Shown here in pieces: positions 26,995 to 43,916 of a stretch of 64,000 nt of DNA. Position 1 is the first letter of the stretch. Every line of letters begins with the position of its first letter. The DNA is from a virus. Position numbers and translations under genes: made by a program. The stretch is taken from the IMG/VR virus record IMGVR_UViG_3300045988_159911. The stretch is one strand, 5' to 3'. The notes under the pieces are model-generated. The model made no database searches. It was not told where the DNA came from and saw nothing but the letters and a program-made list of their open reading frames with translations.

Positions 26995-27483
26995 TCAATG
27001 GTTATCGTTATCGGTGTGCAGCGTTACACCGGCACCGAAGATAAATTCCTTGATGTCGGTATTGTACTCATGCAGGAAATCATCCAGAGTACGATAATCT
27101 TCGCGACTCTGATGGTCAATATAACCATCTGAAGGATCAAGCCAAAGCCCCTTGCAGTTTGCATATTCTGCAACGACCTCATTGATACGGTCAAAATCAC
27201 GCGTTTCAATGAAGTTCTTAATATCCTCTTCGTTGGTTACATCATCATAGCACGACTCGTTACAGCCATTCAGGCAGCGAGCCATTGTCAGCAGATAGCT
27301 CAATCTGGTTTCCTGATCGGTGTAGTCCCAGACCTCCCAACCAAACTCGCCAAACTCTGCATGGACATATCCGTCCTCGCTGACATACAAATAATTGGTG
27401 GACAATCCCTTACTGTGGTCAACGGTCACAGAATGGGTGCTACTGGAGTTTGTTTCAAAAACTCCTCTGCGAATTTGTTTCAT
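26995..27483 (-). CDS. Member 1 of a paralogous family with the conserved N-terminal motif RRGVFETNSSSTHS
   Basis: MKQIRRGVFETNSSSTHSV...; paralogs at 42898..43194 and 43359..43916. Confidence 0.5.
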   Translation of the reverse strand: MKQIRRGVFETNSSSTHSVTVDHSKGLSTNYLYVSEDGYVHAEFGEFGWEVWDYTDQETRLSYLLTMARCLNGCNESCYDDVTNEEDIKNFIETRDFDRINEVVAEYANCKGLWLDPSDGYIDHQSREDYRTLDDFLHEYNTDIKEFIFGAGVTLHTDNDNH

Positions 27484-27737
27484 TACTTTTCAGCCTCCTT
27501 TACATCAAGCTGTGCGGCAAGATCCAAGGCGCGGCACTTCCAGGCATCTGCATCTGTAACTACGCAATCCTCTCCGACTGCCAAGCCAACAACTGCTTCG
27601 TCCTGATAATGGTTGTCCTTAAAGAACGAAACCCTCAGCTTCATAGGCTCCTGAGTGTCGTCGTAGTCTACAACAATGCTGTCGCATCCCGCAGCCTTGT
27701 TCGGGTCGATGTTCAATTCTCCAATTCGTCTGTACAT
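27483..27737 (-). CDS. Hypothetical protein
   Basis: 84-aa ORF. Confidence 0.3.
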   Translation of the reverse strand: MYRRIGELNIDPNKAAGCDSIVVDYDDTQEPMKLRVSFFKDNHYQDEAVVGLAVGEDCVVTDADAWKCRALDLAAQLDVKEAEK

Positions 27738-28213
27738 TCTTTGTAATACTCCTCTATCGGCATAGATTCATAATATCCGGTGGTCTCACCGTTCTTACCC
27801 TTGGGAACACAGTCATCGCAAAATGGACAAATCCAGTCTAAGGTGATACGGGTTGCAGGCTTACCACAGCGAATGCAAGTGTAAGCCGAAAGGTTTTCGT
27901 ACTTGGGGATAATCTCTCGCAGCATCTTCTCGGTACAGCCGTGGTCATACCATCGCAGAGCACCAAACTTTTCTTTGATTTGAGTGATACGGTACTTATC
28001 AAGATACCCAATTTTGACCAGCTCCTGTCGGATCTCCTCACACATCTGCTCGCCAAATGCAATTCGCCATCCATCGGGCATAGCATCAAGCTCGGTGTAT
28101 GAATAGTCGTAGTCTTCAGGAACTTTATCCGTCCACCGATTATGCGGCAAAAGGAACGGGTATCTCTCAATGAGCTTTTTGTTCTGTTCCTTTGTCATAT
28201 CCATCGTTATCAC
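27713..28213 (-). CDS. Cys-rich hypothetical protein
   Basis: 166 aa with CIRCGKP...CPFCDDC. Confidence 0.35.
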   Translation of the reverse strand: MITMDMTKEQNKKLIERYPFLLPHNRWTDKVPEDYDYSYTELDAMPDGWRIAFGEQMCEEIRQELVKIGYLDKYRITQIKEKFGALRWYDHGCTEKMLREIIPKYENLSAYTCIRCGKPATRITLDWICPFCDDCVPKGKNGETTGYYESMPIEEYYKECTDELEN

Positions 28214-28219
28214 CTCCGT

Positions 28220-28711
28220 TTAATACAGCGTCCACCAGTAGTCAAAGCACTTTCTGTACTGGTTTCCGCGATAAACCTCTTTGCTTCTGCGGACAATTTT
28301 GTTGGAGTAACGCTTCCAATATCTTTGGGCGTTGGAATTCTTGGGGTACTTGATGTACTTGCCAACAGGCTGCCATTTGCCGTCCACCCAGTCCCAATCT
28401 ACATACCCTGCCATAGGGTTGTATCCGCAGTGGTTGATGATCCACATCAGATCATCTCTATGTTTGATTGCCATTGTACGGCGGTACTCCATTCCGGTTT
28501 TGCGTTTACCCTTTTTCTTCTTGCAGGGCTTGTCCACATATGCGTCTTCGCAGCAACCGCTGATAAAGAACTCTGTCTGTACTTTATCGCATCCACAGTA
28601 TTCAAACTGGGGATCGTATCCGCCCTCTTTGGCGGCACGAAGACGGTGTTCAACACCTTCGCTGATCGGACATTCATCGCAGGCAAAATAACAGTTGCCA
28701 ACATCGATCAT
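28220..28711 (-). CDS. Cys-rich hypothetical protein
   Basis: 163 aa with multiple Cys pairs (CYFACDEC, CGCD, CC...C). Confidence 0.35.
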   Translation of the reverse strand: MIDVGNCYFACDECPISEGVEHRLRAAKEGGYDPQFEYCGCDKVQTEFFISGCCEDAYVDKPCKKKKGKRKTGMEYRRTMAIKHRDDLMWIINHCGYNPMAGYVDWDWVDGKWQPVGKYIKYPKNSNAQRYWKRYSNKIVRRSKEVYRGNQYRKCFDYWWTLY

Positions 28712-28731
28712 TGGAGCACCTCCTTTTAGGT

Positions 28732-29250
28732 TTACATTACGATTCCTGGATCGTGATCACAGGCATCTCTGCATGACCACTCTCTTTCGTTGCCAAAATT
28801 CATCACACACTTGTAGTGTTCAGATGCCAAATTATCAATGAGGCAGTCATTGTTCAGAACAGCATCTTTGCTTGTTCCTCTTTCCTCGAAATATGTATCA
28901 TCTTGATTGGAGAGATAGGAAATGATATCGTGCTCGGCTTCATCTCTCGAAAAACCAAAACCCTTTCCATAGAACTTGCGAAGAGAACTGATACGCTCCA
29001 GAACATAGGTCGTATTTGCCGTTTCAATGGAAAGAATTTTGCCGCCCTCTGACTCACTCCAGTCAACAACCGTTGAAGTGTGAAGACGATGGAATCTTCC
29101 CATATCGTATTCTGGTTCAAACTTGATAAAACCGCGCTGACCCTTTTCAAGCGCAATGATATAACAGCGGCGGCCAAGAACATCGTAATGGATTTCTTTC
29201 ATCACGCCATCCTTGGGCTTTACCTCTTTGAAAACATAATCGTTACACAT
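28732..29250 (-). CDS. Hypothetical protein
   Basis: 172-aa ORF. Confidence 0.35.
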   Translation of the reverse strand: MCNDYVFKEVKPKDGVMKEIHYDVLGRRCYIIALEKGQRGFIKFEPEYDMGRFHRLHTSTVVDWSESEGGKILSIETANTTYVLERISSLRKFYGKGFGFSRDEAEHDIISYLSNQDDTYFEERGTSKDAVLNNDCLIDNLASEHYKCVMNFGNEREWSCRDACDHDPGIVM

Positions 29251-29262
29251 TTGGGCACCTCC

Positions 29263-29703
29263 TTAGCCACATCCGACCACATACAGATCATTGTTAATGA
29301 TTTTCTTGATCTCCTCTTCGGTCATATCAGTAATCTTCTGCACCGCTTTGATGATACGGTCAATGACCTCCTGCTCAGTCTGAGGTTCATTGGAAGTGTG
29401 GTGCCAAGGCATAGACGGAGGATAGTAGAAGTATGCTGTACCATCGCCATCGTCACCAAAGGTAAGGGAATCTGTATCATCACAGTGACACAGGACATCG
29501 GCAAGATTCTCAAAACCGTTGCCGTAGTAATACTCCTCCATATCGAAAGAAGAGAAATCACCCGTAAGAACCATATCTTTCAAATCTGCCTCTTCGGGAA
29601 ACTGCTCGGAAAAGAACCGCGCCGCCTTTTCCTTGTTGATATGAGACTCAATATCTGCCGCATTGAGGCCAACACCTTCAATCATCCAGTAACTTACGCT
29701 CAC
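29263..29703 (-). CDS. Hypothetical protein
   Basis: 146-aa ORF. Confidence 0.35.
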   Translation of the reverse strand: MSVSYWMIEGVGLNAADIESHINKEKAARFFSEQFPEEADLKDMVLTGDFSSFDMEEYYYGNGFENLADVLCHCDDTDSLTFGDDGDGTAYFYYPPSMPWHHTSNEPQTEQEVIDRIIKAVQKITDMTEEEIKKIINNDLYVVGCG

Positions 29704-29718
29704 TCTGAAAATTCCCCC

Positions 29719-30120
29719 TTACCAGTTGTCATAGTCGGTTACATTTTCTTCCGTGCCGCAAACAGGACACTTAATGGAAATCGCTTCACCAATGCCTGTG
29801 CCGGCCAGTTCAAACAAAAATGTTCCTGCATTTTTGCAAGAAGCGTAGTGCGCTTTTCGGAACTCTGCAATACGCTTCGCCTCCTTGTCAGAAAGCTCAT
29901 GCAGACTATGGCCGCGATAGAATGCAGCCAGTTCATTGGCTTTCTGGATTTCTTCATCTTTGTTCCACTCGGAAAGCTGTTTACGAAGGTCTGCACTTTG
30001 TGCTTTCACACGGTTGTATTCCTGTCGAATTTCCTCCAGAAGCTTGTCAAAATCCTTGAACAGGAACGAGGAAATATCAACCTCTCTGCCGTTAATGTTC
30101 ATTGAAAACCACCTGTTCAC
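29719..30120 (-). CDS. Hypothetical protein with a C-terminal zinc ribbon
   Basis: 133 aa; CKNAGTF...CPVCGTEE. Confidence 0.35.
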   Translation of the reverse strand: MNRWFSMNINGREVDISSFLFKDFDKLLEEIRQEYNRVKAQSADLRKQLSEWNKDEEIQKANELAAFYRGHSLHELSDKEAKRIAEFRKAHYASCKNAGTFLFELAGTGIGEAISIKCPVCGTEENVTDYDNW

Positions 30121-30694
30121 CTTTCTTCAAAGTCCAACAACCGCCACTGACAGATGCACACTCAGTACAGTTACCAGCACATTCTACCGCGCCATCTCTT
30201 GCAGTTGTGGAACCATCGCGATAGCGCACATGAGCTTCGGGTAAAGAAAAAGGGTTGATCATTTCAAGACCAACCCATCCGCTGAACACCATATGCAGAT
30301 TTTTCGGAAGCTCACCATGAGCTGTTATGTATTCGTTTACGATCTCAAACTTCTTTGTGAAGCAGAGGATATCGCAATGTTTCTGGCGGGTTGCTACCTC
30401 AACCATTTTGTCGAAGTAGTCCTTATTCGGAATATCGCCGGATACATGAAATCGGAAGTATCGTGACAACATGATCGTTGCTTCGACCTCTCGCCAATAA
30501 ATATCAGGTGCCTCAATCAGCACCTGAAGGTTATTCTTATATGCCTGCGCTACCGTTCTTCTGATCTTCTCCAGCTTCCTGGCGTAGCACTTCTTCTGAC
30601 AATCACAGGCTCTACAAGTCACTACAGCGGGGAGCGACACGCTCTGGATCGCACCCATCTTTGAGTTACCTTTACTGATGCTTACTACTCCCAT
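30092..30694 (-). CDS. Cys-rich hypothetical protein
   Basis: 200 aa; CRACDCQKKC near the N-terminus and CAGNCTEC near the C-terminus. Confidence 0.35.
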   Translation of the reverse strand: MGVVSISKGNSKMGAIQSVSLPAVVTCRACDCQKKCYARKLEKIRRTVAQAYKNNLQVLIEAPDIYWREVEATIMLSRYFRFHVSGDIPNKDYFDKMVEVATRQKHCDILCFTKKFEIVNEYITAHGELPKNLHMVFSGWVGLEMINPFSLPEAHVRYRDGSTTARDGAVECAGNCTECASVSGGCWTLKKGEQVVFNEH

Positions 30695-30887
30695 CTACTT
30701 CACCTCGCTTATCGTCAAGATGGAAATGCTTTTTGAAAATCTCCATCATCTCGTCGTCTTCAATGTAAAAAGGATCTTTTGTCAGTACATTCATAATCAA
30801 CTGACCGAATCTCCAATCGGGGCACTGACTTTCCCAAATGTCGGCAAGCTGATTGCAAAACTTACGAATACGCTTAGGATCTCTCAC
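30672..30887 (-). CDS. Hypothetical small protein
   Basis: 71-aa ORF. Confidence 0.3.
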   Translation of the reverse strand: MRDPKRIRKFCNQLADIWESQCPDWRFGQLIMNVLTKDPFYIEDDEMMEIFKKHFHLDDKRGEVDGSSKHQ

Positions 30888-30947
30888 GGGTTACCTCCTC
30901 TCAGGTGTAAGAAACTCTGATATAAACCTATTAAAAGGTGCAAGTTA

Positions 30948-31808
30948 TCACAGCCACCGCTCAACATAGTCGCGGTCTTGTGTGAAAATCGGAGGCTCAT
31001 TGTCGATAATCCATTTGCGTCTGGAAACCGTGATGGTCTTACCAGGATTATTCTGGTCAGGCATATTGATTTCCTCAGCTTGCCTATAGCAGCAAGAACC
31101 TCTCTTGCAATCCACGGGGAAATCGTTCCAGTTGATACCATGTACCTGCCACAGCATCTCCTGAATCATGTTTGTGGTCTTCTTATGAAGCTGATTGGCG
31201 CTGAAATACGCTTGTCCAACAGCCTCGATACTGTTTCTGGTGGCATCCTGCTGTCGCCAAATCAAGCAGTTGCAAACTTCATCCTTGGGGACTGAGAATG
31301 CACGAGAATCAAAAAGAGCGCCCTTATTCAGCGCCCTCTTCAAGGTTTCTGCGTATTTGTTCAGCTCCTTTTTGATCTCAGGATCTTCGCTATACATACC
31401 ACTCAGTACATCTTCCCGATTGAAATAATCGTCGATGTTCTGATAGAGCGCTTTGTTAAAAGCCAGGGTTGCCAGCGATGCTGAGATGCTGCACATCTTC
31501 TGGAGGTTATATCCAAACCACGCATCGGTTGTGATGGTCGCGTAGTCCGTCAAAACCAAAGTGATTTCGTCAGACTGTGTGTAGCCAAATACACAACCCT
31601 GAATATTGGCGCAGAGACTTTGCATGGTCTGTTGCATGGTTTTCATCAAGATAGAATCAAAAGGCTTTTTCATGCCCTTTGTAAAGGTGTGAAACGCCTT
31701 GCCGTCAATGCGGATCACAACTGGGACTCTGCGTGTCAGATAGCTACGAGAGATATTTTCATAGCTCTCTTTCATACGGTCACCCAAAGAGTCCTTCTTA
31801 TTGCTCAT
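30948..31808 (-). CDS. Thg1-like tRNA-His guanylyltransferase family protein
   Basis: MKESYENISRSYLTRRVPVVIRIDGKAFHTFTKGMKKPFD...FGYTQSDEITLVL matches the Thg1 N-terminal signature (RxDGxxFHxF...KPxD...SDEIS). Confidence 0.65.
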   Translation of the reverse strand: MSNKKDSLGDRMKESYENISRSYLTRRVPVVIRIDGKAFHTFTKGMKKPFDSILMKTMQQTMQSLCANIQGCVFGYTQSDEITLVLTDYATITTDAWFGYNLQKMCSISASLATLAFNKALYQNIDDYFNREDVLSGMYSEDPEIKKELNKYAETLKRALNKGALFDSRAFSVPKDEVCNCLIWRQQDATRNSIEAVGQAYFSANQLHKKTTNMIQEMLWQVHGINWNDFPVDCKRGSCCYRQAEEINMPDQNNPGKTITVSRRKWIIDNEPPIFTQDRDYVERWL

Positions 31809-33150
31809 CGCTGCACCATCCTTTCATAATCAAATGTTTAATGATTGCGGGGCGCTCGTTTTCAAGGTTACCACTGATGACAGCATCAAGAACCTCATTT
31901 AGAATTCGCCCAACATCTTTACCCTCTTTTACATCGCAGAGGTTCATAATGTCATACCCGTCAATGACCAGATCCTTCAGCTTAAAGCATTGGTTCTGCT
32001 CAATGATTTCGCTTGCCATCATGCCAAGAGCGATACATCTGTCAATGCGAGACTCTTGCGTATCTTTTCTGTGAGCCAGAATATCTGCCATGCGAATATC
32101 AAGAAGTCGCATAAACTGCTTTTCACCGACTTTATTGAGCCATCTACGAACCGTTTTGGGAGTAGGCTCAATAACTGCATCGTGATATAGCACCAGTTCA
32201 AGAATGTCATCTCGCGATTTGTTATCAAAGCGAAGTCTTGTCAGGACTTTTTCTGCAAGGTCATGGCTGAAAACCCCATGACCGTAGAAGTGCCCACCAT
32301 TGTGATCTTCTGTATAACAGCATGGTTTACCAATGTCGTGAAGCAGAAGTGATACATTTACCACCGGATCTGTGGCGTCGTAGTTTGCAACCGCATGAGC
32401 AATATGGTCGTAAATCGTAAACTCATGGAATCGATTGTTCTGGTCAAATCCAATACAAGGCTTAAGTTCAGGAATAATCGTTGCCATCACATCGCTATAT
32501 TCAAGCAGGATATTGAGAATACCCTTGCCGGCCAGCATCTTGCATAGTTCTGACTGGATGCGCTCTGCAGCAATGTTCATCAACCTATCTTTGTTTTGGT
32601 GAATGGATCTTGCTGTTTCTTCGGCAATAGAAAAACCGTATACAGATGCAAATCGCATTGCTCTAAGGATACGCAGAGCGTCCTCTCCAAACCTGTCGTC
32701 TGGATTTCCAACACAGGAAATAACACCACGCTCCAAATCTTCGTTTCCACCAAAAGGATCGATCAGACCGTTATGGTTGTATGCCATTGCGTTAATGGTG
32801 AAGTCTCTGCGAGCCAGATCTTCCGCCACATTTGTTACGAACCTTACCGAATCGGGGTGGCGGTTATCTGAATATTCGCCATCCACTCGAAATGTAGTGA
32901 CCTCATACTGCCCATCGTCCATTACGATGGTTACAGTACCGTGCTTCAATCCTGTCTCGATAACACGCTTGTCACAAAAACTGTATAGAATTTGTGACGG
33001 GGAGGCAGATGTACACACATCCCAATCCTTAGGCTCGACGCCAAGCAGACTGTCTCTTACACAGCCACCGACCACATATGCGTCATATCCTGCCTGCTGT
33101 AGGGTATGGGTAATAATTTGGGCACCCTGAGGAATATGGATATCACTCAT
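31798..33150 (-). CDS. cca: CCA-adding tRNA nucleotidyltransferase with a C-terminal HD domain
   Basis: GGCVRDSLLGVEPKDWDVCTSASP head motif; RxxRF motif; HD motif (LLHDIGKP). Confidence 0.8.
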   Translation of the reverse strand: MSDIHIPQGAQIITHTLQQAGYDAYVVGGCVRDSLLGVEPKDWDVCTSASPSQILYSFCDKRVIETGLKHGTVTIVMDDGQYEVTTFRVDGEYSDNRHPDSVRFVTNVAEDLARRDFTINAMAYNHNGLIDPFGGNEDLERGVISCVGNPDDRFGEDALRILRAMRFASVYGFSIAEETARSIHQNKDRLMNIAAERIQSELCKMLAGKGILNILLEYSDVMATIIPELKPCIGFDQNNRFHEFTIYDHIAHAVANYDATDPVVNVSLLLHDIGKPCCYTEDHNGGHFYGHGVFSHDLAEKVLTRLRFDNKSRDDILELVLYHDAVIEPTPKTVRRWLNKVGEKQFMRLLDIRMADILAHRKDTQESRIDRCIALGMMASEIIEQNQCFKLKDLVIDGYDIMNLCDVKEGKDVGRILNEVLDAVISGNLENERPAIIKHLIMKGWCSDEQ

Positions 33151-34165
33151 TGATCGCCCTCCTGTTTACTTCTACCACAAACTCTTCAACACGCTTCATA
33201 TTGGGTGTTGCCGGCAGGTCAGTGTTTTCCTTGGCATACTTCAAACGCTTCTCGTAGCTATTCACCAAGTCGAAGAATTCCTGCCTATATGAACCGTCTT
33301 CTCTCTGGAATTTGCCATTACGAATACTCAGCAAAAACTCCCGATCTCCGTAACGGTAGGTATTGATCTCACCCTTTTCCAGAATGTCAAGGCACATCAT
33401 GTACAGACGGATTAGGTGCATGGCGTGCTTGTTGAGATGGTTGTCGTCCTTTTTACGATTTCGATGGTTCAGCTTTTCATAGTTGCCAATGACATTGGAA
33501 AGCGTATTTATCATCACGCTAAAATCTCTTGCAGGGAACTTGTCGATGTGAATGTTGCAAAAGACTTCTCGATCCAAATCATCGCGTGGACTTTCATCTG
33601 TAAACAGGGTAATGCCGCCGCTATCCATCACAGAATAGCGGTCTGCGAAAGCCTTAAAAGAACGCTCCATTGCACTTCGGATATGTTCTTCGGTATCCGC
33701 CTGACACATTTTATCTCTTGCCAGAGCATTCTGCAGGCGTCGTAGCTGCTGTGTTGCATACCCGCCAAAAGAATTAACTGCCTTCTGAGAAAGGAAGAGA
33801 TCGCGGTTGTCAATCATCATCTGTCCAGCGTCAGAGATGTAAAAATAATGCTCTGGCTTGCAGCCGAGCATCTCAATGGTGTTGGGGTTGCAGTTAAGCA
33901 AAAGACCAATCAGTTTATTAAACCCGTAGATCGTGGTGTCGGTCTGTGTGTGTACGACCTGCTCAAAGTTCGTGAGGCCGAGGATATCGCTTTTGCTGTT
34001 CATTGCACACCCTCGAATATCGACATCCGAGGTTTCAACATTCGTTCCGTAGGCGTAACTCCCGCCCAGTGTCAGAAACATGATGCGATCCTTGAGATGT
34101 GGGTTGGTTCGCAGAAAATCATATTCTTCGCTTGCCACCATCTCTTTAATTTGCTCAATCGTCAT
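33143..34165 (-). CDS. Pol-beta superfamily nucleotidyltransferase, possibly an RlaP-like RNA-repair-associated enzyme
   Basis: TLGGSYAYGTNVETSDVDIRG carries the GS...DxD minimal nucleotidyltransferase motif. Overlaps the cca start by 8 nt, so the two are translationally coupled. Confidence 0.55.
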   Translation of the reverse strand: MTIEQIKEMVASEEYDFLRTNPHLKDRIMFLTLGGSYAYGTNVETSDVDIRGCAMNSKSDILGLTNFEQVVHTQTDTTIYGFNKLIGLLLNCNPNTIEMLGCKPEHYFYISDAGQMMIDNRDLFLSQKAVNSFGGYATQQLRRLQNALARDKMCQADTEEHIRSAMERSFKAFADRYSVMDSGGITLFTDESPRDDLDREVFCNIHIDKFPARDFSVMINTLSNVIGNYEKLNHRNRKKDDNHLNKHAMHLIRLYMMCLDILEKGEINTYRYGDREFLLSIRNGKFQREDGSYRQEFFDLVNSYEKRLKYAKENTDLPATPNMKRVEEFVVEVNRRAINE

Positions 34166-34701
34166 ACGCTCCTCCTTCCTTGGTATGTTTCGTATAATGC
34201 TTTCTGTGGCGCATACTCACCAAAGAGTTCAATCTCTTTTGAGAGCCTTGCCTTGACAGCATCTTCTTTGAATTTGTATCTCCCTATGTAAACGCGCTTG
34301 CCGTTGTATGAGATATTAGCAAGCCACATTCCGCGTTCCTTATCGTAGAAAACACCCGTTACGCCGGAAGTGTTGGTGGAATAAAGACCACGGTTGCGGT
34401 CGTTCTCTGTAAACGCACAGCGTCTCAGATTGCGCTTGCGGTTATCTTTTCTATTCTTGTCGATATGGTCAACTATCTCTCCGGGCTTAGCGTGCATCAC
34501 AATCCTGTGGAATCTGGAGACCTGATAACGACCGAAATAGTAATAGCCGCATACGAGGTATCCATCTTTATCGGGATACCAGTTGCGGCTTTGGATCAAA
34601 TGCAGATCGTCGAGATCAAACAGATATTCAGATGTTCCGAGGTGAAGAATACCGTGCGTTGAAAGAAGCTCAATTCGTTTCTGGGCGGCTTTCATCTCCA
34701 C
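34162..34701 (-). CDS. HNH homing endonuclease with an AP2 DNA-binding domain
   Basis: HNH region RFHRIVMHAKPGEIVDHIDKNRKDNRKRNL; AP2-like region SGVTGVFYDKERGMWLANISYNGKRVYIGRYKFKEDAVKAR. Confidence 0.65.
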   Translation of the reverse strand: MEMKAAQKRIELLSTHGILHLGTSEYLFDLDDLHLIQSRNWYPDKDGYLVCGYYYFGRYQVSRFHRIVMHAKPGEIVDHIDKNRKDNRKRNLRRCAFTENDRNRGLYSTNTSGVTGVFYDKERGMWLANISYNGKRVYIGRYKFKEDAVKARLSKEIELFGEYAPQKALYETYQGRRSV

Positions 34702-35203: not shown

Positions 35204-35206
35204 TGC

Positions 35207-35985: not shown

Positions 35986-36012
35986 GCACAGGTTTGTCGA
36001 TATTTATTGACA

Positions 36013-36612: not shown

Positions 36613-36615
36613 CTT

Positions 36616-36822: not shown

Positions 36823-36832
36823 ATTTCCTCCG

Positions 36833-37054: not shown

Positions 37055-37058
37055 TGAC

Positions 37059-37544: not shown

Positions 37545-37554
37545 ATACTCCTCC

Positions 37555-37830
37555 TTACTTCTTCATGTGATAATGCCACACAAATCCATAAGCATCCTGG
37601 ACGGTTTTAACATACTCGACCTTATCCATAACCTCGGGCGGAATTTCCCATCCTGTTCCGATTGGAATCAATTCCACCTCCACTTCTGGAACCGAGTCAT
37701 CGGTTAAAATCCAAGCAGTTACAACAGAACGCTGAACCTGAATGTCTAACAAGCGGACGAATCTGCACTTAATTTCCGTAGGTACTTCTCCATTATACAG
37801 AGGATATTTCAGAATCCTTTTAGCGTTCAT
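37555..37830 (-). CDS. Hypothetical protein
   Basis: 91-aa ORF. Confidence 0.3.
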   Translation of the reverse strand: MNAKRILKYPLYNGEVPTEIKCRFVRLLDIQVQRSVVTAWILTDDSVPEVEVELIPIGTGWEIPPEVMDKVEYVKTVQDAYGFVWHYHMKK

Positions 37831-37845
37831 AAAATCAGCCTTTCA

Positions 37846-38121
37846 TTACCAAAATCTCACTTTTTTCACATCGTTTTCCTCAAGAAAATCAACGCCGCCA
37901 AAGTACCGACATTTATCACACGCGTCTTCGTGTTCAACATCAAAATTATACTTTGCTTTTGGGCATACACTGAGGAAATCATCTGTCTCTAAAATGCGAA
38001 GCGCATAACAAAAGTGGGAATGATCTTCATTTGTCCATGATGAACTTTTTATTCGCACACAAGGAAAACGAATTTTATGTATCGCTGCACGAATTGCAGA
38101 ACGCAATATCCAAAGCTTCAT
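37846..38121 (-). CDS. Hypothetical protein
   Basis: 91-aa ORF. Confidence 0.3.
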   Translation of the reverse strand: MKLWILRSAIRAAIHKIRFPCVRIKSSSWTNEDHSHFCYALRILETDDFLSVCPKAKYNFDVEHEDACDKCRYFGGVDFLEENDVKKVRFW

Positions 38122-38160
38122 TTTGTGCCCTCACTTTCTGCACCGAATTGCATAAACTTC

Positions 38161-38499
38161 TTAAAATACAGGTCTTTGTGCATCACAGATAATCTTGTGA
38201 AACTCCTCTTCGGAAATCTCATATTCATCATTTTCAAAGTGTTCTTTGAATGCTCTGTTCAAACCGATGCAAATATCCTCTGCGTACTTGGCAAACTCCG
38301 CATGAATCATTGCCATCACCCTATCGCCAAGAGTTCGATAATCTATGGCCTCATGCACCTCATGCATATTAGGGTGCGCCCATACTGCATCAACATCGGC
38401 GCGGATGTTTGCCTGCTGTTCTTGTATGTCATACACTCTGGCTTCAACATCGTAAATAAGCCCTTGCAGGCGGTCAAAATCTTCAGGCATTAGTACCAC
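38161..38499 (-). CDS. Hypothetical protein
   Basis: 112-aa ORF. Confidence 0.3.
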   Translation of the reverse strand: MVLMPEDFDRLQGLIYDVEARVYDIQEQQANIRADVDAVWAHPNMHEVHEAIDYRTLGDRVMAMIHAEFAKYAEDICIGLNRAFKEHFENDEYEISEEEFHKIICDAQRPVF

Positions 38500-39044
38500 T
38501 CCCAGTAAAAGAGTGCTTCCTCCTCGTCGGGTTCGATTGCTTCAATTCGATCCTCGGGGAAAGCCTTGTTGAACGCCAGGAGCATTGCACCGGAAAGAAT
38601 GTAGAAACCTGTATTTTCTACATCTTCCTCAATGTGCTCGTGGAACCAATCCTGAATGTCGTATGCTTTGCGCCAGTATCGAATTTCTTCGGAGTCACAC
38701 ACAAAACGCTTTTCCACGCGTTCAACAGTGTATTTGCGTTCAATATCCTCGTTGGAAATTTCCACTGTCTTTTTGGTTTCCCGGTCAGTGATTGCGATAC
38801 GATAGGCGCTCATCATGCTGATGTAGGAATCGTCTGACAGCTTATAATCCTTTCGGATCTTTTCCATATCGTAATACTGACTTCTGACCTGAAGCTGCTG
38901 AACATACGGAGCAAGCTGACGGTACATCGGTTCCTTCAGTTCATCCTCATCCAGGATGATGCCGCTGATATCCACGCGGTCATAAATTACGGAGTCATCC
39001 ACATGAGGTTTGGAGATCCGGCGAATTTCCATATCCAGTCCCAT
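38490..39044 (-). CDS. Hypothetical protein
   Basis: 184-aa ORF. Confidence 0.35.
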   Translation of the reverse strand: MGLDMEIRRISKPHVDDSVIYDRVDISGIILDEDELKEPMYRQLAPYVQQLQVRSQYYDMEKIRKDYKLSDDSYISMMSAYRIAITDRETKKTVEISNEDIERKYTVERVEKRFVCDSEEIRYWRKAYDIQDWFHEHIEEDVENTGFYILSGAMLLAFNKAFPEDRIEAIEPDEEEALFYWEWY

Positions 39045-39619
39045 TAGTAATCCTCCTCTCCATCCTCATCATCGCCAATGAAAACTACATAGGCGAAATC
39101 GACCTTGCCATCAATGCCGATATGGTAAATGCATGGGTAGCCGCCATCACCATAACCGGAACTGGTGACTACACCATCTGCGAATACGCCGGCTTTGGCT
39201 CTTGACAGTGTAATGTTGCACATCTTGTCATACCAGTCGTCATCTTCACCGCCGTTTCTGGCAATGAAATTGTTGTCATCATAGAAACCCGCCTGACCAC
39301 TATCGACGCCGGTTTCAAAATCTGCAATTTTCCAATCTGTTGAAAGCAGAGGAGACAGCCCATCTGCCGTGTTGTTGATTGTTTTTGTCTCCAGAGGAAG
39401 TGTGCAATCTTTGTGTTTTACTGCGAGAACCGCTACGCGGTCGCCCCACCCTCTTGTTGCCTCATTATCGAGGGTCAGAACTGCCGCCTCCCAAATACCG
39501 GGCTTGGTATCCAGAACACCGCTGCACCAAACATCAGGCTTGTAACAGGGATCGCTGACTCTCATTTTCCCCGCAATAGAAAAGTTGCCGAGCTGTGTCA
39601 ATTCAGTTTTGTATTTCAT
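39044..39619 (-). CDS. Hypothetical protein (start trimmed to the internal ATG)
   Basis: MKYKTELTQLGN... is preceded by RBS GGAGGTG. The longer ORF N-terminus is actually the terminator hairpin. Confidence 0.4.
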   Translation of the reverse strand: MKYKTELTQLGNFSIAGKMRVSDPCYKPDVWCSGVLDTKPGIWEAAVLTLDNEATRGWGDRVAVLAVKHKDCTLPLETKTINNTADGLSPLLSTDWKIADFETGVDSGQAGFYDDNNFIARNGGEDDDWYDKMCNITLSRAKAGVFADGVVTSSGYGDGGYPCIYHIGIDGKVDFAYVVFIGDDEDGEEDY

Positions 39620-39650
39620 CCTTACACCTCCGCATATGTAAAAAGTCGAG

Positions 39651-39706
39651 AGATAAAAAAGACCCGAACAGATCATGTAGTGAATGGAACTCATGTTGTT
39701 CGGGTC
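39651..39706 (-). terminator. Rho-independent terminator on the minus strand
   Basis: 10-bp stem GACCCGAACA/TGTTCGGGTC followed by TTTTTTAT on the minus strand. Confidence 0.55.
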
Positions 39707-40187
39707 TTGATGTCGAATATTAAATTGTTTGTTCGGTTGCCTTGTTCAGAACGAAAGCTTTCTATGCCTTACAGCCAATTTGAACTGACACGAAGTCAGG
39801 CATTAAGTTCAGAACTTACTAAGTAAATTATAGGGAGAATCATTCCCAAATAGTTTTCTTCATTTACAAACGACGCATGGCGAAACGCATCTCGTAAGCG
39901 GCAATTCTGGAACGAATTGTTGAACTGTCGGGCTGTGCATAGATCGCTTGGCGAATAACAAAAACTCTTGAATAGCGGATGTTGTTCCTCCAAGATAGAG
40001 CCTTGAAAAAGCAAGGCGGCTTTTACATCCATTTCAAGTGGATTATGTTATATTAAACGACCAAAGTCGGTGAGTACAGGTACTCGGGTTCGCAGCGTTA
40101 TACTTCATCTGCGACTGAAGCGACTGATAAGTCAAAGTCCACTTTCGCCCTGAACAAGACAACCGAAGTTGTCTGTTCGATTATGCA

Positions 40188-40817
40188 TTAAGCAGCAGGA
40201 GTAAGAAACTGCTCAATGGCATCCTCGAAGGAATCGTTGACGCTGTAATTGGGGTTGTAATCCACCGCCAGCTCAACCATTGCCTTATCAATGGCGGTGG
40301 ACGCTTCGTCGGCGCACTGGATCAGCTTCTTGCTGATACCCTTGACCTTATTGCGGTCAAAGTCGATGGTAGTCACTTCCTTAACCTCGTAGGCATACTG
40401 AACCTGATTGCCTTCGGCGTTAAACTTGTAGGCATATGCTCTGGTCATACGCTCGGAAGGCTTCATATTGCCCATACGAGACAGTGTGGCAGCCACACTC
40501 TGACGAATACGATTGTTGGCAACCTCAGCATCAATGTCAATACTGCAGCCCTTCTTGGCTTCGCTGATCGCCTTGGTCAGCTTCTGCTTCTCGCCAATCA
40601 GATGCTGCAGAAAATCAACCATCTGATTTGCAGTGTAAGCCAAAGCTCTTTCCGCAGACAGATCAATGGTTTCGTTTTCCGCATCGGGGTTTGCCTTCTT
40701 ACGCAGGTGCTCCTGCACCGTCTTTGTGGTGTACTGACCGCCGTTCAGATAACTGGTGGTGGCGGAGATCAGTTCGTTCAGATAATTCTGATATCGAAAA
40801 GCTTCTTTCAAATACAT
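40188..40817 (-). CDS. Hypothetical protein
   Basis: Starts at the internal ATG 40817 with RBS GAGGAGGAATAAAGGA. The upstream part of the 321-aa ORF overlaps a separate gene in another frame. Confidence 0.4.
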   Translation of the reverse strand: MYLKEAFRYQNYLNELISATTSYLNGGQYTTKTVQEHLRKKANPDAENETIDLSAERALAYTANQMVDFLQHLIGEKQKLTKAISEAKKGCSIDIDAEVANNRIRQSVAATLSRMGNMKPSERMTRAYAYKFNAEGNQVQYAYEVKEVTTIDFDRNKVKGISKKLIQCADEASTAIDKAMVELAVDYNPNYSVNDSFEDAIEQFLTPAA

Positions 40818-40821
40818 TCCT

Positions 40822-41139
40822 TTATTCCTCCTCTTTATTCTCGATAGGGCGATTGAGTCTGATTTCACTGAGCTTGTAGTATTCAACGAAATCAAATGCT
40901 GTGATGTTGTAAGGATCGCAATCATCAACCGGTTGGAAACCCAACAGGAAATCTCCGTCACCGAGCGGGATACAATCCTTGATAATGCCGACATTGGCGT
41001 GTGTGTCTTCAAAAATGCTCTCGTCCATAAAGCATTCTTTTTGTTCATAGGGTGTAAATACACGCCGGTAAATCCAATAGCGGAATATCTCACCCTCATG
41101 TGCCTTGATAAAAGCGTGGAAGTCTGTGTATGTATCCAT
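40822..41139 (-). CDS. Hypothetical protein
   Basis: 105-aa ORF. Confidence 0.35.
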   Translation of the reverse strand: MDTYTDFHAFIKAHEGEIFRYWIYRRVFTPYEQKECFMDESIFEDTHANVGIIKDCIPLGDGDFLLGFQPVDDCDPYNITAFDFVEYYKLSEIRLNRPIENKEEE

Positions 41140-41153
41140 TCAGAGCCCTCCAA

Positions 41154-41489
41154 TTAGAAATTAACGCAATCACGAATAATGTGTTCAGCATGAAGCTCGT
41201 CTTCATCTGCCACAGAGATCCATGTCTGCCAGTTATATTTGTCTGTAACATCTCCGGTGATGTCATACACACGACCATCAATCTGACAGCCAAAGTGATT
41301 TTCAATCTGATCATACATAATTTCTACATCTTCATGCCAAGCGTCAATATCATAGAATCGCTCCTGAAGAATATATGCAAACCAGAAACAACAGCCGCAG
41401 GTAAAAGTATCAATGGTTCCCTGGTTCTTACCGCCCTGCGTAAAACGGTTAATGAACCCCATTACCTTATCGCGCCTGTCCATCAGCAA
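41154..41489 (-). CDS. Hypothetical protein
   Basis: 111-aa ORF. Confidence 0.35.
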   Translation of the reverse strand: MLMDRRDKVMGFINRFTQGGKNQGTIDTFTCGCCFWFAYILQERFYDIDAWHEDVEIMYDQIENHFGCQIDGRVYDITGDVTDKYNWQTWISVADEDELHAEHIIRDCVNF

Positions 41490-41950
41490 TGATAATCAAC
41501 AACGCCGCCAATGAAATAAGTCTCTCCGTCCTTTACCAGACGCATGAAGTTGTCCAGAGTATCGAGGAAGCCATCATCGCAATAGACATAGAAACCATAG
41601 CGGTCACTGTAGGCTTCCCTCAGATTGAAGAGAACCGAATCAACGGAGTAACTGGAAACAAAATCTTCAAAAGTGGTTCCAGAAAGTTTTTCTGCTGCCT
41701 TGATAAAAGCTTCGTGCTTTTCTTTGAAGTATCTGCGAACATCAGAGGAGAAAGTCAGCTTGTCCCCATCGACTGTGGCAATATCACCGAGCGCAGCAGT
41801 CATCAGCCAATCAATGTCGTCTTCACGACTACAATCATCGCTGGTGTAATCCGCAACCGAATTGGTAAACCACTCAGGGGTACAATCGCTGTCAATGCGT
41901 TCTTCCTCGGGAACGACCTCTTTTTCGATCTGAAAAATTCTGCTATGCAA
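41483..41950 (-). CDS. Hypothetical acidic protein
   Basis: 155-aa ORF. Confidence 0.35.
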   Translation of the reverse strand: MHSRIFQIEKEVVPEEERIDSDCTPEWFTNSVADYTSDDCSREDDIDWLMTAALGDIATVDGDKLTFSSDVRRYFKEKHEAFIKAAEKLSGTTFEDFVSSYSVDSVLFNLREAYSDRYGFYVYCDDGFLDTLDNFMRLVKDGETYFIGGVVDYHC

Positions 41951-41952
41951 TC

Positions 41953-42771
41953 TTACCCCTCCTTTGTCTTTAAGAATTGGAACATCTCCGTGATGTTGTT
42001 GGTGACAGGGAAACGCTCTGTGCTACAAGAGTTTCTTGCAAATTGGCCGGAAACTGCATCCACATACATAGAAGCAGAACTTAACTCGCCCTCTCTGCCA
42101 TCGTCTCCCATATAGAAAATCTTCCACTCTTCTTCAGACATCAGTCGCTTGACATCAAGCTGAGAAATTGCCAGATTGTCAAAGCTTACGGTCTTGAACC
42201 AACCGTTTTTGATAATCTGCGGAAGATATTCATACATATCATGCATTTTGTTGTCGACGATCTGACCAACCTTCATATGGTGGTCAGCGCCGCGTCGGAA
42301 ATCCTTATATCCAAGGATCAGGATCTTCAGCTCACGGTTGCGTTCCGAAAGCCAAGACACCTGTTCCATACTAACAATGCCGTTGATGATGTGAATAACA
42401 GCATTGGGAAACTTGGAAACTTCATCCGCAAAACGGTAAGTGCTTTCGCGATCTCCGCCGGTATAAGAAATTCCCAAGCCATAAATAAACCCTTGCTCCG
42501 TCAGTTCGAGAAGCAAGGGAATGTTTTTCAGAAAATGAACTTCGTTGACCGTCACATTTGCTATCAGCTTGCGCTTCTTCAGCAAATGCAGAAACGGGAT
42601 AAAATCTGGGTGCGAGAGCGGGTTGCCGCCGCCAATCGCCAGTTCCGTAAACTCGTGGAGAGAGTCAAGAAACGGCAGGTTGAGGATATCACCGTGCTTG
42701 CCATCCGGCCTGGAATCCTCATGGCACATAGGGCAACCCATATCGCAAGCGTTGGTGATTTTGATATCCAT
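41953..42771 (-). CDS. Radical SAM enzyme
   Basis: CDMGCPMC is a CxxxCxxC motif near the N-terminus; a GGGNP glycine-rich motif follows. Confidence 0.6.
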   Translation of the reverse strand: MDIKITNACDMGCPMCHEDSRPDGKHGDILNLPFLDSLHEFTELAIGGGNPLSHPDFIPFLHLLKKRKLIANVTVNEVHFLKNIPLLLELTEQGFIYGLGISYTGGDRESTYRFADEVSKFPNAVIHIINGIVSMEQVSWLSERNRELKILILGYKDFRRGADHHMKVGQIVDNKMHDMYEYLPQIIKNGWFKTVSFDNLAISQLDVKRLMSEEEWKIFYMGDDGREGELSSASMYVDAVSGQFARNSCSTERFPVTNNITEMFQFLKTKEG

Positions 42772-42783
42772 CGACTCAGGGAA

Positions 42784-42885
42784 TTAGGCATCAAAGAAGT
42801 CCAGATCGTTTTCTCGGATCTTGGTGCCGTCGGAGAGTATCGTCACGCTATAGTTTCCATTTTGATATTGACCCAAGATACTCAT
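42784..42885 (-). CDS. Mini-ORF (33 aa) directly upstream of, and in frame with, the radical SAM gene
   Basis: ATG at 42885 with RBS GGGAGG gives MSILGQYQNGNYSVTILSDGTKIRENDLDFFDA. A single TAA stop separates it from the in-frame radical SAM ORF. Confidence 0.3.
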   Translation of the reverse strand: MSILGQYQNGNYSVTILSDGTKIRENDLDFFDA

Positions 42886-42897
42886 ACACAACCTCCC

Positions 42898-43194
42898 TTA
42901 ACCGTCTCTTCCGTAGGTGCCAAAGGCAACCATCTTATCACCACTCGGCGTAGTAAAGCGATGGGAATAAACATCAAGTGAGTACCATCTGTTATCGCCG
43001 AGATTTTCGTAGGTGCAATACTGACCGTCTTCATCCTCAGTGAGGATAGAGGATTTCGGAACCAGCTTTTCGCCCCAACTGTCATACATCAGCTCACCGC
43101 GCTTAAACTTCTCATACTCGTCTTCGGTGCAAATGGTGATGCTATGAGTGGAACTACTGTTCGTTTCGAACACGCCGCGTCTAACCTGCTTCAT
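42898..43194 (-). CDS. Member 2 of the RRGVFETNSSSTHS family (short form)
   Basis: MKQVRRGVFETNSSSTHSI...; only the N-terminal 18 aa are shared with the other two members. Confidence 0.45.
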   Translation of the reverse strand: MKQVRRGVFETNSSSTHSITICTEDEYEKFKRGELMYDSWGEKLVPKSSILTEDEDGQYCTYENLGDNRWYSLDVYSHRFTTPSGDKMVAFGTYGRDG

Positions 43195-43358
43195 TATTCC
43201 AATCCTTTCTTTCTGGTGGTGTCCTTTTCTCGATTACGGTCATATGCCTTTTTATTCGGGACGGACTGTGTTACTGGGCGAGCGCAAGTCCAGAAGTTCC
43301 GAAACTTTTTAGCATACTCTTTCTTCTGATTTTTCTCAGTCATGTGCTCGCCTCCATT

Positions 43359-43916
43359 TTAATTTCCTTTGTAATACTCCTCGTGAGGATAAAGTGCATG
43401 GATATCTACATCCATATCACTATTATCGTTTCCGGTGAGTACAAAACTGTCTTCAGAGAAGAGATACCGCAAAAGGCGCCCCTTATTACTTGTAGTCTTA
43501 TCCACAAACCTTTGGTGATCATCTTCACCGCAGTGGTCTACACTTGCATTTACCACATAGGAACCGCTTCCGTAATTGTGGTATACAGCCTCGTCGAACT
43601 CACACTCGACACCAACACTGTCAAGAGTTTCCATGATAAACGCCATGACATCTTGTGCTTTTTCTCTGCTGTAAAGACTCAGAAAACTGGCATAAAGATA
43701 TGCCGCCTTTTCTTCAGGGGTGTCAAGCCGATCAAAACCCCAACCAAAATCTTCACATCGGAAGATAAGTTTGGCAGGGTAAGAAAGTTCCGTGTTACGA
43801 TTGGTTGCAATACAGATGCTGTGGGTGCTGCTGGAGTTTGTTTCAAAAACACCGCGCCGTTCCTGTCTCATTAGGTTTCTCCTCTCGTTCGTATTTGAAA
43901 AGAATTCGTAATCCAT
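43359..43916 (-). CDS. Member 3 of the RRGVFETNSSSTHS family
   Basis: ...RQERRGVFETNSSSTHSI... with further similarity to member 1 (FGW, LTGNDN versus LHTDNDN). Confidence 0.5.
   Translation of the reverse strand: MDYEFFSNTNERRNLMRQERRGVFETNSSSTHSICIATNRNTELSYPAKLIFRCEDFGWGFDRLDTPEEKAAYLYASFLSLYSREKAQDVMAFIMETLDSVGVECEFDEAVYHNYGSGSYVVNASVDHCGEDDHQRFVDKTTSNKGRLLRYLFSEDSFVLTGNDNSDMDVDIHALYPHEEYYKGN

Follow-up and report, generated by a model that had tools for sequence, protein, structure and literature searches.

A conserved N-terminal peptide shared by diverse phage proteins encoded next to a radical SAM enzyme

Introduction

The radical SAM enzymes SuiB and SkfB modify the peptides that they bind, in the SuiB/SuiA (streptide) and SkfB/SkfA (sporulation killing factor) systems, respectively. 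Their partners are short peptides in which a leader precedes a variable core. Protein substrates are known as well: a single anaerobic sulfatase-maturating enzyme (anSME) serves many sulfatases via a common motif, and in the PFL/PFL-AE and GrcA systems the enzyme that acts on a protein is a small radical SAM enzyme lacking auxiliary clusters.

Here we describe a phage module that is abundant, occurs in very different large phages and carries no functional annotation. The window, that is, the whole stretch of viral DNA analysed (64,000 nt; IMG/VR record IMGVR_UViG_3300045988_159911), contains three genes whose products share an N-terminal peptide, two of them close to a radical SAM gene. On balance, we favour the view that this is an uncharacterised phage system in which the radical SAM enzyme recognises, and probably chemically modifies, the peptide shared by the family proteins.

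Results

Three genes of the window encode the same N-terminal peptide

The three paralogous ORFs singled out in the initial annotation are present where it had placed them, all on the minus strand (Table 1), with one adjustment: the third ORF does extend to 43916, but the true start of its product is most likely the ATG at 43871, since homologues of ~170 aa begin with MRQERRG and an AGGAG precedes that ATG. A stretch of 14 residues, RRGVFETNSSSTHS, beginning at residue 5 of the likely protein, is identical in members 1, 2 and 3, and over 300 ORFs on other contigs carry motifs of this type, so that the identity cannot be due to chance. The peptide is written with different codons. Over the 14 motif codons, members 1 and 2 differ at 10, members 2 and 3 at 10 and members 1 and 3 at 6, and every difference is synonymous (e.g. 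AGT AGT TCC versus TCC AGC AGC), with zero amino-acid changes. This bears out the earlier suggestion that selection acts on the peptide rather than on a copied block of DNA.

Table 1. Features of the window discussed in the text
Feature	Position	Strand	Basis or remark
NifS/IscS-type cysteine desulfurase, directly downstream of member 1	25846..26988	-	PF00266 E 1.9e-83; TIGR03402 NifS E 4.7e-121
Member 1, type-A family protein, 162 aa	26995..27483	-	phrog_28997 E 7e-8, full length
Radical SAM gene, RiPP-maturase-like, interrupted	41953..42885	-	CX3CX2C = C-D-M-G-C-P-M-C
272-aa radical SAM ORF restarting at Met	41953-42771	-	Remainder past the TAA
In-frame TAA, GAA→TAA at Glu34 of the radical SAM protein	42784..42786	-	Comparison with P0122
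N-terminal radical SAM fragment, 33 codons	42787-42885	-	Cut off by the in-frame TAA
Member 2, type-B family protein, 98 aa	42898..43194	-	phrog_28997 E 1.4e-5, residues 3-24 only
49-aa basic ORF between members 3 and 2	43194..43343	-	ORF list, sequence
Member 3, type-A family protein, 170 aa	43359..43871	-	phrog_28997 E 3.6e-22, full length

Members 1 and 3 also have FGW and a (T/G)NDN motif in common, as had been noticed. In member 3 the N-terminal MRQERRGVFETNSSSTHS is followed by FGW, DH, GNDN and a C-terminal YYKGN, and 1,526 homologues of ~170 aa starting with MRQ were found. Member 1, a solo copy ~15 kb from the radical SAM gene, groups with the type-A bodies (see below) and stops just past TDNDNH, without the YYKGN tail. 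Member 2 continues after the motif with C..EYEKF..GEL, an acidic insert and the C-terminal SGDKMVAFGTYGRDG. It matches the type-B HMM with an E-value of 3.5e-37, and the possibility that it is a truncated pseudogene was rejected, as its C-terminus is common to a cluster of 44 unique type-B proteins of 92-137 aa; member 2 is full length for its own subfamily. The small basic ORF preceding it, whose TAA stop overlaps the ATG of member 2 (TAATG), is of uncertain coding status: it had no family match in profile searches, and its sole weak homologue lies in locus L155 (55% over 40 aa, E 0.29). A family HMM run on the window retrieved exactly the three members and no others. Scans for promoters and terminators gave no excess over shuffled sequences.

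The motif heads a large phage family with diverging bodies

Rather than the three-member family initially proposed, the window proteins are part of a very large family of phage proteins that has been clustered before, as phrog_28997, and counts ~5,300 cluster representatives at 50% identity; relatives of the radical SAM enzyme number more than 7,800. The module is carried by Lak megaphages of Prevotella, by Microcystis phage Ma-LMM01 and by gut Clostridia phages. Among 185,579 species genomes it was found in only 64 contigs, almost all from metagenome-assembled genomes. It is essentially confined to phages. phrog_28997 has no name and is placed in the category 'unknown function', and annotated phage records list its members as 'hypothetical protein'. 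In Ma-LMM01, the family protein gp130 and the radical SAM protein gp128 belong to phrog_28997 and phrog_16999, respectively, and neither entry description mentions the other. Searches of the three window proteins against Pfam, NCBIfam and PADLOC gave no matches, nor did a profile search of PDB sequences, even at an E-value of 10; BFVD yielded only one further uncharacterised family member and a possible fusion to a radical SAM domain. A 20-kb portion of the window had no megablast match among phage genomes, the motif string was absent from the searchable literature, and other literature queries returned no relevant result.

The family consensus at the N-terminus is M-K-x-x-[IV]-R-x-x-V-F-E-T-N-S-S-S-x-H-[SA]. 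In a set of 159 unique N-termini, R(-4), F, E, T and H(+8) show 97-100% conservation, even though the search pattern did not prescribe them. As the initial annotation had it, the proteins diverge beyond this segment: the motif heads two major types of body, A and B, as well as four small groups without detectable BLAST similarity in the body, with overall lengths of 92-267 aa. A comparison of type-B with type-A bodies by hhalign gave a weak local match between the C-terminus of B and the 'P..F..EFGW' hairpin of A (E 0.039), which is suggestive of a common origin but is not proof of it.

Type-A proteins have further invariant residues, namely D112-H113, N148-D149-N150, a C-terminal YKGN and an invariant Gly. 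The AF2 model of member 3 has a pLDDT of 89.8, that is, a confidently folded domain, whereas residues 1-4 and 9-11 are below 50 and the first strand starts from residue 15. This predicts an exposed, flexible motif, the state expected of a segment entering the active site of another enzyme, though low confidence at the N-terminus can also stem from a missing ligand or oligomer. The same features could be read differently. The motif could be an N-terminal active-site loop (a Ser/His nucleophile, or metal or anion binding) of small hydrolase-like enzymes, with the radical SAM enzyme acting in the same pathway and never touching it. The additional invariant D-H and N-D-N motifs and Gly of type A, and the position of the motif directly before the first β-strand of a confidently folded domain, are what such enzymes might show, and an active site could be built from the polar residues of type A and the N-terminal Ser/His. 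The motif itself would then be catalytic, which would count against its modification. We regard this reading as distinctly unlikely. Analogies with glycyl-radical enzymes, Ntn-hydrolases, pyruvoyl enzymes and SGNH-hydrolases were considered and dismissed, as the order of motifs or the fold is wrong.

The picture of a precursor with a conserved leader and a variable core, which had been raised at the outset, fits these data poorly, given protein lengths of 92-267 aa and the confident fold of type A, the sole type modelled. Classical RiPP precursors, i.e. long precursors releasing an excised, small modified peptide natural product, would account for several tandem precursor-like genes adjoining a SuiB/SkfB-like enzyme. 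Nevertheless, the invariant part is N-terminal and only ~18 aa long, the rest of type A has conserved residues of its own, no hypervariable core lies beside the conserved segment, and no recurrent protease, transporter or immunity gene was found in the neighbourhood clusters. This interpretation is therefore very improbable. The invariant segment itself is most likely the site of action, and not a disposable leader.

Family genes are tightly linked to a single radical SAM gene

The surroundings of the family genes were surveyed in 156 related loci, representing 109 non-redundant groups. One to seven motif-headed genes stand in tandem per locus and, in the first 86 loci, all motif ORFs lie on the strand of the matched family gene. 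A radical SAM gene was found within 300 nt of the array in 79 of the 109 groups and within 1.5 kb in 11 more, the gap typically being 0-25 nt; only nine groups lacked it despite adequate flanking sequence. The check for synteny with the radical SAM gene in relatives, as proposed in the initial annotation, is thus strongly positive (90/109). Furthermore, the 24 reference phage records containing the family (15 Lak megaphages and 9 Microcystis Ma-LMM01-like phages) are exactly those in which the radical SAM protein was found at 80% coverage or more. At most one full-length radical SAM ORF occurs per locus, in every locus listed, and two contigs encode a natural radical SAM–family fusion of 453 aa in which the motif is internal. 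The family and one dedicated radical SAM enzyme form a conserved two-component module. Of the functions first suggested for the peptide, a recognition tag for the neighbouring radical enzyme is best supported, because of this synteny and the shared set of reference records. Some family genes stand alone at a distance from the radical SAM gene, as member 1 does, and argue against a role of the motif as substrate.

Linkage of this kind could also arise if the family proteins were interchangeable accessory or specificity subunits, whose motif docks into the radical SAM enzyme and whose bodies recruit the actual targets, be these proteins, RNAs, DNA or metabolites. No modification of the family protein would then occur. 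The tight adjacency, the single enzyme per one to seven paralogues, the common tag on differing bodies and the fusion are all compatible with such adaptors. Types A and B, moreover, usually co-occur, with B between the type-A gene and the radical SAM gene in all locus layouts read, an arrangement that could reflect a defined multi-subunit complex. However, for docking there would be no need to keep seven polar residues in a row (E-T-N-S-S-S-x-H) almost unchanged in phages of cyanobacteria, Bacteroidota and Firmicutes alike, and the closest structural relatives of the enzyme modify the peptide bound. We therefore consider adaptors rather unlikely.

Nor does the linkage sit well with a signal for virion targeting or processing, by which the peptide, like the capsid-targeting sequence of T4 internal proteins, would be cut by a prohead protease after V-F-E, the bodies being packaged and injected effectors. 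A conserved N-terminus on variable bodies and tandem polymorphic arrays do recall the T4 internal proteins, and V-F-E presumably resembles the T4 gp21 site [LIV]-x-E. Yet the near-obligate adjacency of the radical SAM gene would be left unexplained, conservation runs well beyond the putative cut site (N-S-S-S-x-H), and the motif is internal in the fusion. Targeting signals, moreover, co-evolve with the scaffold and protease of each phage, yet the motif does not vary between unrelated phage lineages, and the family genes of the window and of Ma-LMM01 lie among non-structural genes. We give this explanation very little credence.

The radical SAM gene of the window lineage is interrupted

The neighbouring enzyme has the CX3CX2C [4Fe-4S] motif and the partial TIM-barrel core of the radical SAM superfamily, and matches phrog_16999 ('Fe-S oxidoreductase'). 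Its closest structural relatives are SuiB and SkfB. In the radical SAM alignment, C47, C51 and C54 are the only invariant cysteines, and outside CX3CX2C there is no invariant or nearly invariant Cys that might ligate SPASM/twitch auxiliary clusters. No RRE domain was recognisable by sequence. This departure from the nearest structural relatives speaks against the modification of the peptide.

What had been described as a separate 'mini-ORF' turned out to be the beginning of the radical SAM gene: its first 33 codons, ended by an in-frame TAA. The otherwise identical 310-aa homologue P0122 has GAA (Glu34) at this site: the window reads ...FFDA*FPESMDIK and P0122 reads ...FFDAEFPESMDIK. The 272-aa truncated product is on record from four contigs in three sources, so the TAA is not a read error of the window. 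Recoding of stop codons, an idea prompted by the common frame of member 2, the 'mini-ORF' and the radical SAM ORF, was ruled out: the TAA of member 2 is followed by GGGAGG and an ATG, radical SAM homologues begin with MSILGQ, and the intact homologue has GAA at the position of the TAA. No suppressor tRNA was present among the six tRNAs. With a nonsense codon near the 5′ end of the gene, the module may be impaired in this phage lineage, or may be run as a split or truncated enzyme. In the window lineage the enzyme gene is broken but none of the three family genes is, a further point against modification of the peptide.

A cysteine desulfurase is an occasional neighbour

Member 1 was originally described as abutting a cysteine desulfurase gene, and in locus L140 a 66%-identical member 1 orthologue likewise adjoins NifS, with the gene order of the window. 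This association is not general, since just 6 of ~156 loci have NifS within a few kb, two of the six being from the same phage group as the window; NifS homologues near the module were seen only in L140, L083, L155, L075 and L065. NifS might supply Fe-S clusters to the radical SAM enzyme, but the association is only occasional.

Discussion

In the reading that we favour, the radical SAM enzyme would be a stripped-down relative of the peptide-modifying RiPP maturases. It would bind the exposed N-terminal segment of each paralogue and, by means of a 5′-deoxyadenosyl radical, modify one of the residues of E-T-N-S-S-S-x-H-S. A single maturase would serve one to seven substrate proteins, whose variable bodies may bear different activities or specificities, a logic like that of anSME and its sulfatases. 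From the features described above we infer that the motif is both binding and modification site, and the chemistry and biological role are likewise inferred from them. More specifically, and with somewhat less than even confidence, we suggest a phage-specific system of protein maturation. In it, a minimal radical SAM enzyme devoid of auxiliary clusters would introduce a novel modification, perhaps a Ser-derived carbonyl or an intramolecular cross-link, into E-T-N-S-S-S-x-H. A large and diversifying family of small phage effectors, whose fold is not represented in the PDB, would thereby share a new functional residue or cofactor.

If the radical SAM enzyme does modify the invariant peptide, the reaction would be new to post-translational chemistry, and folded proteins bearing an N-terminal modification tag would make up a new class of radical SAM substrates. 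Thousands of 'hypothetical' phage genes would gain a function, and the enzyme and its tag would form a compact pair of possible biotechnological use.

Several known systems resemble the module in part. The T4 internal proteins have a conserved N-terminal peptide, variable bodies and tandem polymorphic arrays in phage genomes. The T4 system has no radical SAM enzyme, however, while the motif described here is conserved across unrelated phages and past any plausible cleavage site, and no link of the family genes to head genes was seen. A link to thymidine hypermodification was dismissed, as the radical SAM protein gp53 of phage M6 is spore-photoproduct-lyase-like and belongs to another family. 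The αββα sandwich of Ntn-hydrolases and pyruvoyl enzymes, with the nucleophile at the start of the central strand, was not found in the family, nor was the (C/S)-x-(P/A)-x-R motif in an alkaline-phosphatase-fold sulfatase that characterises the substrates of anSME. The PFL/PFL-AE and GrcA systems are similar in that their enzyme, too, is small and devoid of auxiliary clusters and acts on a protein, as is proposed here, and in that an invariant Gly, within F-G-W/Y, is present in the family; the RVxG[FWY] glycyl-radical motif, the Gly_radical domain and a PFL-AE-type activase are nonetheless missing.

Also among the nearest described systems are SuiB/SuiA and SkfB/SkfA, from which the module differs in several respects. 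The enzyme lacks auxiliary-cluster cysteines and an RRE recognisable by sequence; its partners are proteins of 92-267 aa, the type modelled being a folded domain, instead of short peptides; the conserved element is an invariant 18-aa segment instead of a leader preceding a variable core; and the module is essentially confined to phages. The family proteins do not resemble RiPP precursor peptides, which are short and combine a leader (or follower) with a variable core that is excised. What the module does have in common with RiPP and protein-maturase systems is the co-localisation of the genes for the maturase and its putative substrates, seen here in 90 of 109 groups and, in addition, as a fusion of the two.

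The conserved N-terminal peptide and its gene family

The three ORFs of the initial annotation were recovered as described, all on the minus strand, and are listed in the table with the other features discussed here. A 14-residue peptide, RRGVFETNSSSTHS, is identical in the three proteins (members 1, 2 and 3), and MKQIRRGVFETNSSSTHSITIC is the 20-22-mer version of the N-terminal motif segment of the family. Homologues of member 3 are ~170 aa long and open with MRQERRG, and AGGAG lies 5′ of the corresponding ATG; on these grounds 43871 is the most probable true start of member 3, and with it the peptide begins at residue 5 in each of the three proteins. Of the 14 codons of the motif, 10 differ between members 1 and 2, 10 between members 2 and 3, and 6 between members 1 and 3. 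All these differences are synonymous, which bears out the earlier claim that selection acts on the peptide. The three genes start in a TAATG context (27481-27485, 43192-43196 and 43869-43873). In the case of members 1 and 2 this TAA terminates an upstream ORF (27483-27737 and the 49-aa ORF, respectively), which suggests that these two genes may be translationally coupled to the ORFs preceding them. Weak similarity to the 49-aa ORF (55% over 40 aa, E 0.29) was found upstream of the family array in one other contig (L155).

Features of the window discussed in the text
Feature	Coordinates	Strand	Remarks
Member 1	26995-27483	-	162-aa ORF, type A
GP88-family protein (PF17338)	30092-30694	-	Cys-rich N-terminus
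Thg1-like tRNA-His guanylyltransferase	30948-31808	-	
CCA-adding/poly(A)-polymerase-family enzyme	31798-33150	-	HD domain
RlaP-family nucleotidyltransferase	33143-34165	-	
HNH-AP2 homing-endonuclease-like protein	34162-34701	-	
DUF4241 protein	39044-39694	-	
YunG-like phage protein	41154-41489	-	
Radical SAM (rSAM) gene	41953-42885	-	GAA→TAA nonsense codon at Glu34, 42784-42786
Member 2	42898-43194	-	98-aa ORF, type B
Very basic 49-aa ORF, candidate gene	43194-43343	-	between members 3 and 2; MTEKNQKKEYAKKFRNFW…PVTQSVPNKKAYDRNREK…; stop overlaps member 2 start (TAATG)
Member 3	43359-43916	-	likely start 43871; type-A motifs
~205-aa protein (MGQYYKPL…LKLMEHSW(V/I)GN.F)	44335-44997	-	5′ end overlaps tRNA-Leu
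Six tRNA-like genes	44970-46359 and 60215-61410	-	Leu-CAG, Ser-GCT, Thr-TGT, Ala-TGC, Ser-TGA and an odd call (61338-61410) with a two-base 'anticodon'

In the 64-kb window the family HMM detected these three members and no others. Each of the proteins matches phrog_28997, a PHROG in the category 'unknown function', and none has a match in Pfam, NCBIfam, PADLOC or the PDB sequences. The description as a three-member family did not stand: member 3 has 1,526 relatives in a 90%-clustered protein collection, and a profile built from 46 members retrieved 5,330 representatives at 50% identity (2,476 of them at E ≤ 1e-10), and almost every match starts within residues 1-3. The reference-phage records with the family number 15 from Lak megaphages, which are unannotated, and 9 of the Microcystis Ma-LMM01 type, in which it is labelled 'hypothetical protein'. 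Only 64 contigs from 185,579 species genomes carry it, almost all of them MAG contigs. The family is carried essentially by phages. In the searchable literature the motif string does not appear.

From 159 unique N-termini out of 323 ORFs, the consensus M-K-[RK]-Q-[IV]-R-x-[GNS]-V-F-E-T-N-S-S-S-[TV]-H-[SA]-[IL] was derived. Counting the Phe as position 0, R(-4) is conserved in 100%, F in 97%, T in 98% and H(+8) in 99% of the sequences, all of them positions that the search pattern left free, and the Phe lies 8-9 residues past the initiator Met in 298 of the 323 ORFs. As an explanation of such a segment, a T4-like capsid-targeting leader is highly improbable.

Behind the motif, two major body types were distinguished on sequences from which the motif had been removed. 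Type A (141-267 aa), which includes member 1, has as invariants beyond the motif G43 (in F-G-W), Y58-L59, D112-H113 and D149, the last within a nearly invariant N-D-N, and usually ends in YYKGN. Type B (92-137 aa) is characterized by C..EY..W..GEL, a variable acidic insert and a C-terminal SGD.VVAFG.YGYD. Since type-B bodies form a group of their own, member 2 is an ordinary type-B protein, and its interpretation as a truncation was rejected. Four further small groups have bodies without similarity detectable by BLAST. When B and A bodies were compared profile against profile, a single weak local match (E 0.039) emerged, of the B C-terminus against the 'P..F..EFGW' hairpin of A, which suggests that a minimal core of motif, strand 1 and FG(W/Y) hairpin may be common to both.

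An AlphaFold2 model computed from the type-A alignment was confident (pLDDT 89.8, pTM 0.86). Mean pLDDT was 45 over the first ten residues, with values below 50 at residues 1-4 and 9-11, and strand 1 begins at residue 15; the model thus predicts that the most conserved part of the protein is an exposed N-terminal segment with little order, running into strand 1. The alternative that the family proteins are autonomous enzymes, with the motif as their active-site loop, appears improbable.

Association with a radical SAM gene

The loci collected around family genes comprised 85 from IMG/VR, ENA and JGI and 64 from genome or MAG contigs; ORFs were called, and all neighbours were clustered. The dominant cluster was the rSAM family to which the window's gene belongs, found in 76 of the 86 first sources (the 85 loci and the window) and in 49 of the 64 genome/MAG contigs. 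When 156 loci were collapsed at 80% identity, the rSAM gene lay at most 300 nt from the family array in 79 of 109 groups, within 1.5 kb in 11 more, and farther away in one; it was absent in 9 groups with a flank of at least 1.5 kb and in 9 with a short flank. The gap is typically 0-25 nt, and the rSAM gene lies downstream of the array in 79 of the groups and upstream of it in 8. The 24 reference-phage records that bear the family coincide exactly with the 24 in which the rSAM is found at 80% coverage or more; the order in Ma-LMM01 is gp130 (type A), gp129 (unrelated) and gp128 ('Fe-S oxidoreductase').

Family genes form tandem arrays of 1-7 copies (one copy in 32 loci, two in 49, three in 16, four in 4, five in 5, six in 2 and seven in 1), on one strand throughout the array in the first 86 loci, and every locus listed has at most one full-length rSAM ORF. 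In the layouts read, the usual order is type A, optional extra paralogues, type B and rSAM. In two loci (L061 and L062, both 4109-5470) the two components are naturally fused in a 453-aa protein, with the rSAM N-terminal and the family protein C-terminal. The fusion keeps the motif internal (…KQRRVVRHSLFETNSSSIHS…), with the rSAM directly before it and the family body behind. The leader/core organisation suggested earlier was not supported, and a classical excised RiPP is very doubtful. As an account of the adjacency and the fusion, a model in which the family proteins are docking adaptors is unlikely.

Several individual arrangements were also observed. A second fusion may be represented by BFVD A0A6J5LQS4 (461 aa, 'Radical_SAM domain containing protein'). 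An rSAM orthologue of 691 aa (L119, 3629-5704) owes its length to an intein with a LAGLIDADG homing endonuclease (PF14528, PF14890). In one phage group (L003/L004/L014, 6522-10591) a cassette for NAD salvage, comprising an isochorismatase-family nicotinamidase, a PRPP-synthetase-like protein, a NAMPT-like protein and NAD synthase, lies between the type-A and type-B genes; in L003 an IS110-family transposase occupies the expected rSAM place behind the type-B gene. The ~205-aa MGQYYKPL protein, which has no Pfam match, recurs in 12 loci of closer relatives (e.g. L009, 4939-5553), where its gene lies 5′ of the array; the start of the window's copy is probably further downstream, as its 5′ end overlaps tRNA-Leu.

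The interrupted rSAM gene and other genes of the window

Member 2, the 'mini-ORF' and the rSAM ORF share a single reading frame. After the TAA of member 2 come GGGAGG and then an ATG, at which rSAM homologues start, reading MSILGQYQNGNY…. An intact 310-aa homologue (P0122), identical across the 272-aa ORF, reads …FFDAEFPESMDIK where the window has …FFDA*FPESMDIK. The 'mini-ORF' is thus, by comparison with these homologues, the first 33 rSAM codons, severed by the GAA→TAA change, and the 272-aa ORF restarts at a Met four codons past the nonsense codon, giving a form of the enzyme without residues 1-38. Stop-codon recoding was ruled out by the GGGAGG and ATG, the homologue starts and the sense codon of P0122. 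Records of the exact 272-aa product (P0121) exist for four contigs and come from three data sources, which shows the TAA allele to be real; intact and shortened versions are both in circulation.

Member 1 stands alone as a type-A copy, some 15 kb away from the rSAM gene, and the gene that follows directly downstream encodes a NifS/IscS-type cysteine desulfurase. A related phage (L140) has this pair in the same order (66% identity), and four more distant loci (L083, L155, L075 and L065) also carry NifS no more than a few kb from the module. The arrangement would be in keeping with sulfur supplied by the phage to the Fe-S enzyme. The association is occasional and not defining, and the general Fe-S/NifS link proposed initially finds no support in so few loci. 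Tabulated genes at 30948-34165 form a run for tRNA maturation and repair, and a Thg1 gene is near the module in L001/L002 too. No suppressor tRNA was seen among the six tRNA-like genes. Apart from those tabulated, neighbours between member 1 and the member 2/3 region had no Pfam match.

Proposed function and relation to known systems

In the rSAM family (~300 aa, >7,800 relatives) CX3CX2C (C47, C51, C54) is invariant. A GGGNP motif for SAM binding is also present, and an N-terminal extension of 38 residues is strongly conserved (Y7, N9, Y12, G20-T21-K22, R24, P36-E37-S38). No other cysteine is conserved, so SPASM/twitch auxiliary clusters are absent. Sequence comparison recognises no more than the generic rSAM core. 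The closest structural relatives were the streptide maturase SuiB (274 of 310 residues aligned, score 17.8) and the sactipeptide-type maturase SkfB (264 aligned, 17.5), that is, enzymes that modify the peptide they bind, followed by BlsE (14.6), anSME (14.2), EpeE (14.0), ChlB (13.9), viperin (13.8), MoaA (13.5), PqqE (13.1) and pyruvate formate-lyase activase (9.7). Speculatively, the conserved N-terminal sheet of the enzyme could be a minimal peptide-binding element.

We propose that the rSAM would recognise the exposed N-terminal segment of the family proteins and most likely abstract a hydrogen inside E-T-N-S-S-S-x-H-S, thereby installing a modification; the motif would be recognition element and site of chemistry in one. 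This is suggested by the peptide-selected segment on diverse bodies, the tandem copies, the adjacency, near-obligate across very distant phages, the fusion and the structural relatives. That the two components are functionally coupled is very probable; for the more specific statement, that the rSAM recognises the motif and modifies a residue in it, we lean towards acceptance. The earlier idea of a recognition tag beside a radical enzyme remains the best-supported reading, with the rSAM within 1.5 kb in 90 of 109 groups.

The phage rSAM of thymidine hypermodification, M6 gp53, is spore-photoproduct-lyase-like (PMC8989533) and unrelated to the enzyme of the window. The best functional analogy is anSME, a single enzyme that acts on many sulfatase paralogues by way of one short motif. 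Sulfatase motif, sulfatase fold and SPASM domain are all missing from the phage module, so that this is analogy and not membership. Abundant and specific to phages, the module represents a previously undescribed variant on the theme of an rSAM maturase with its substrate.
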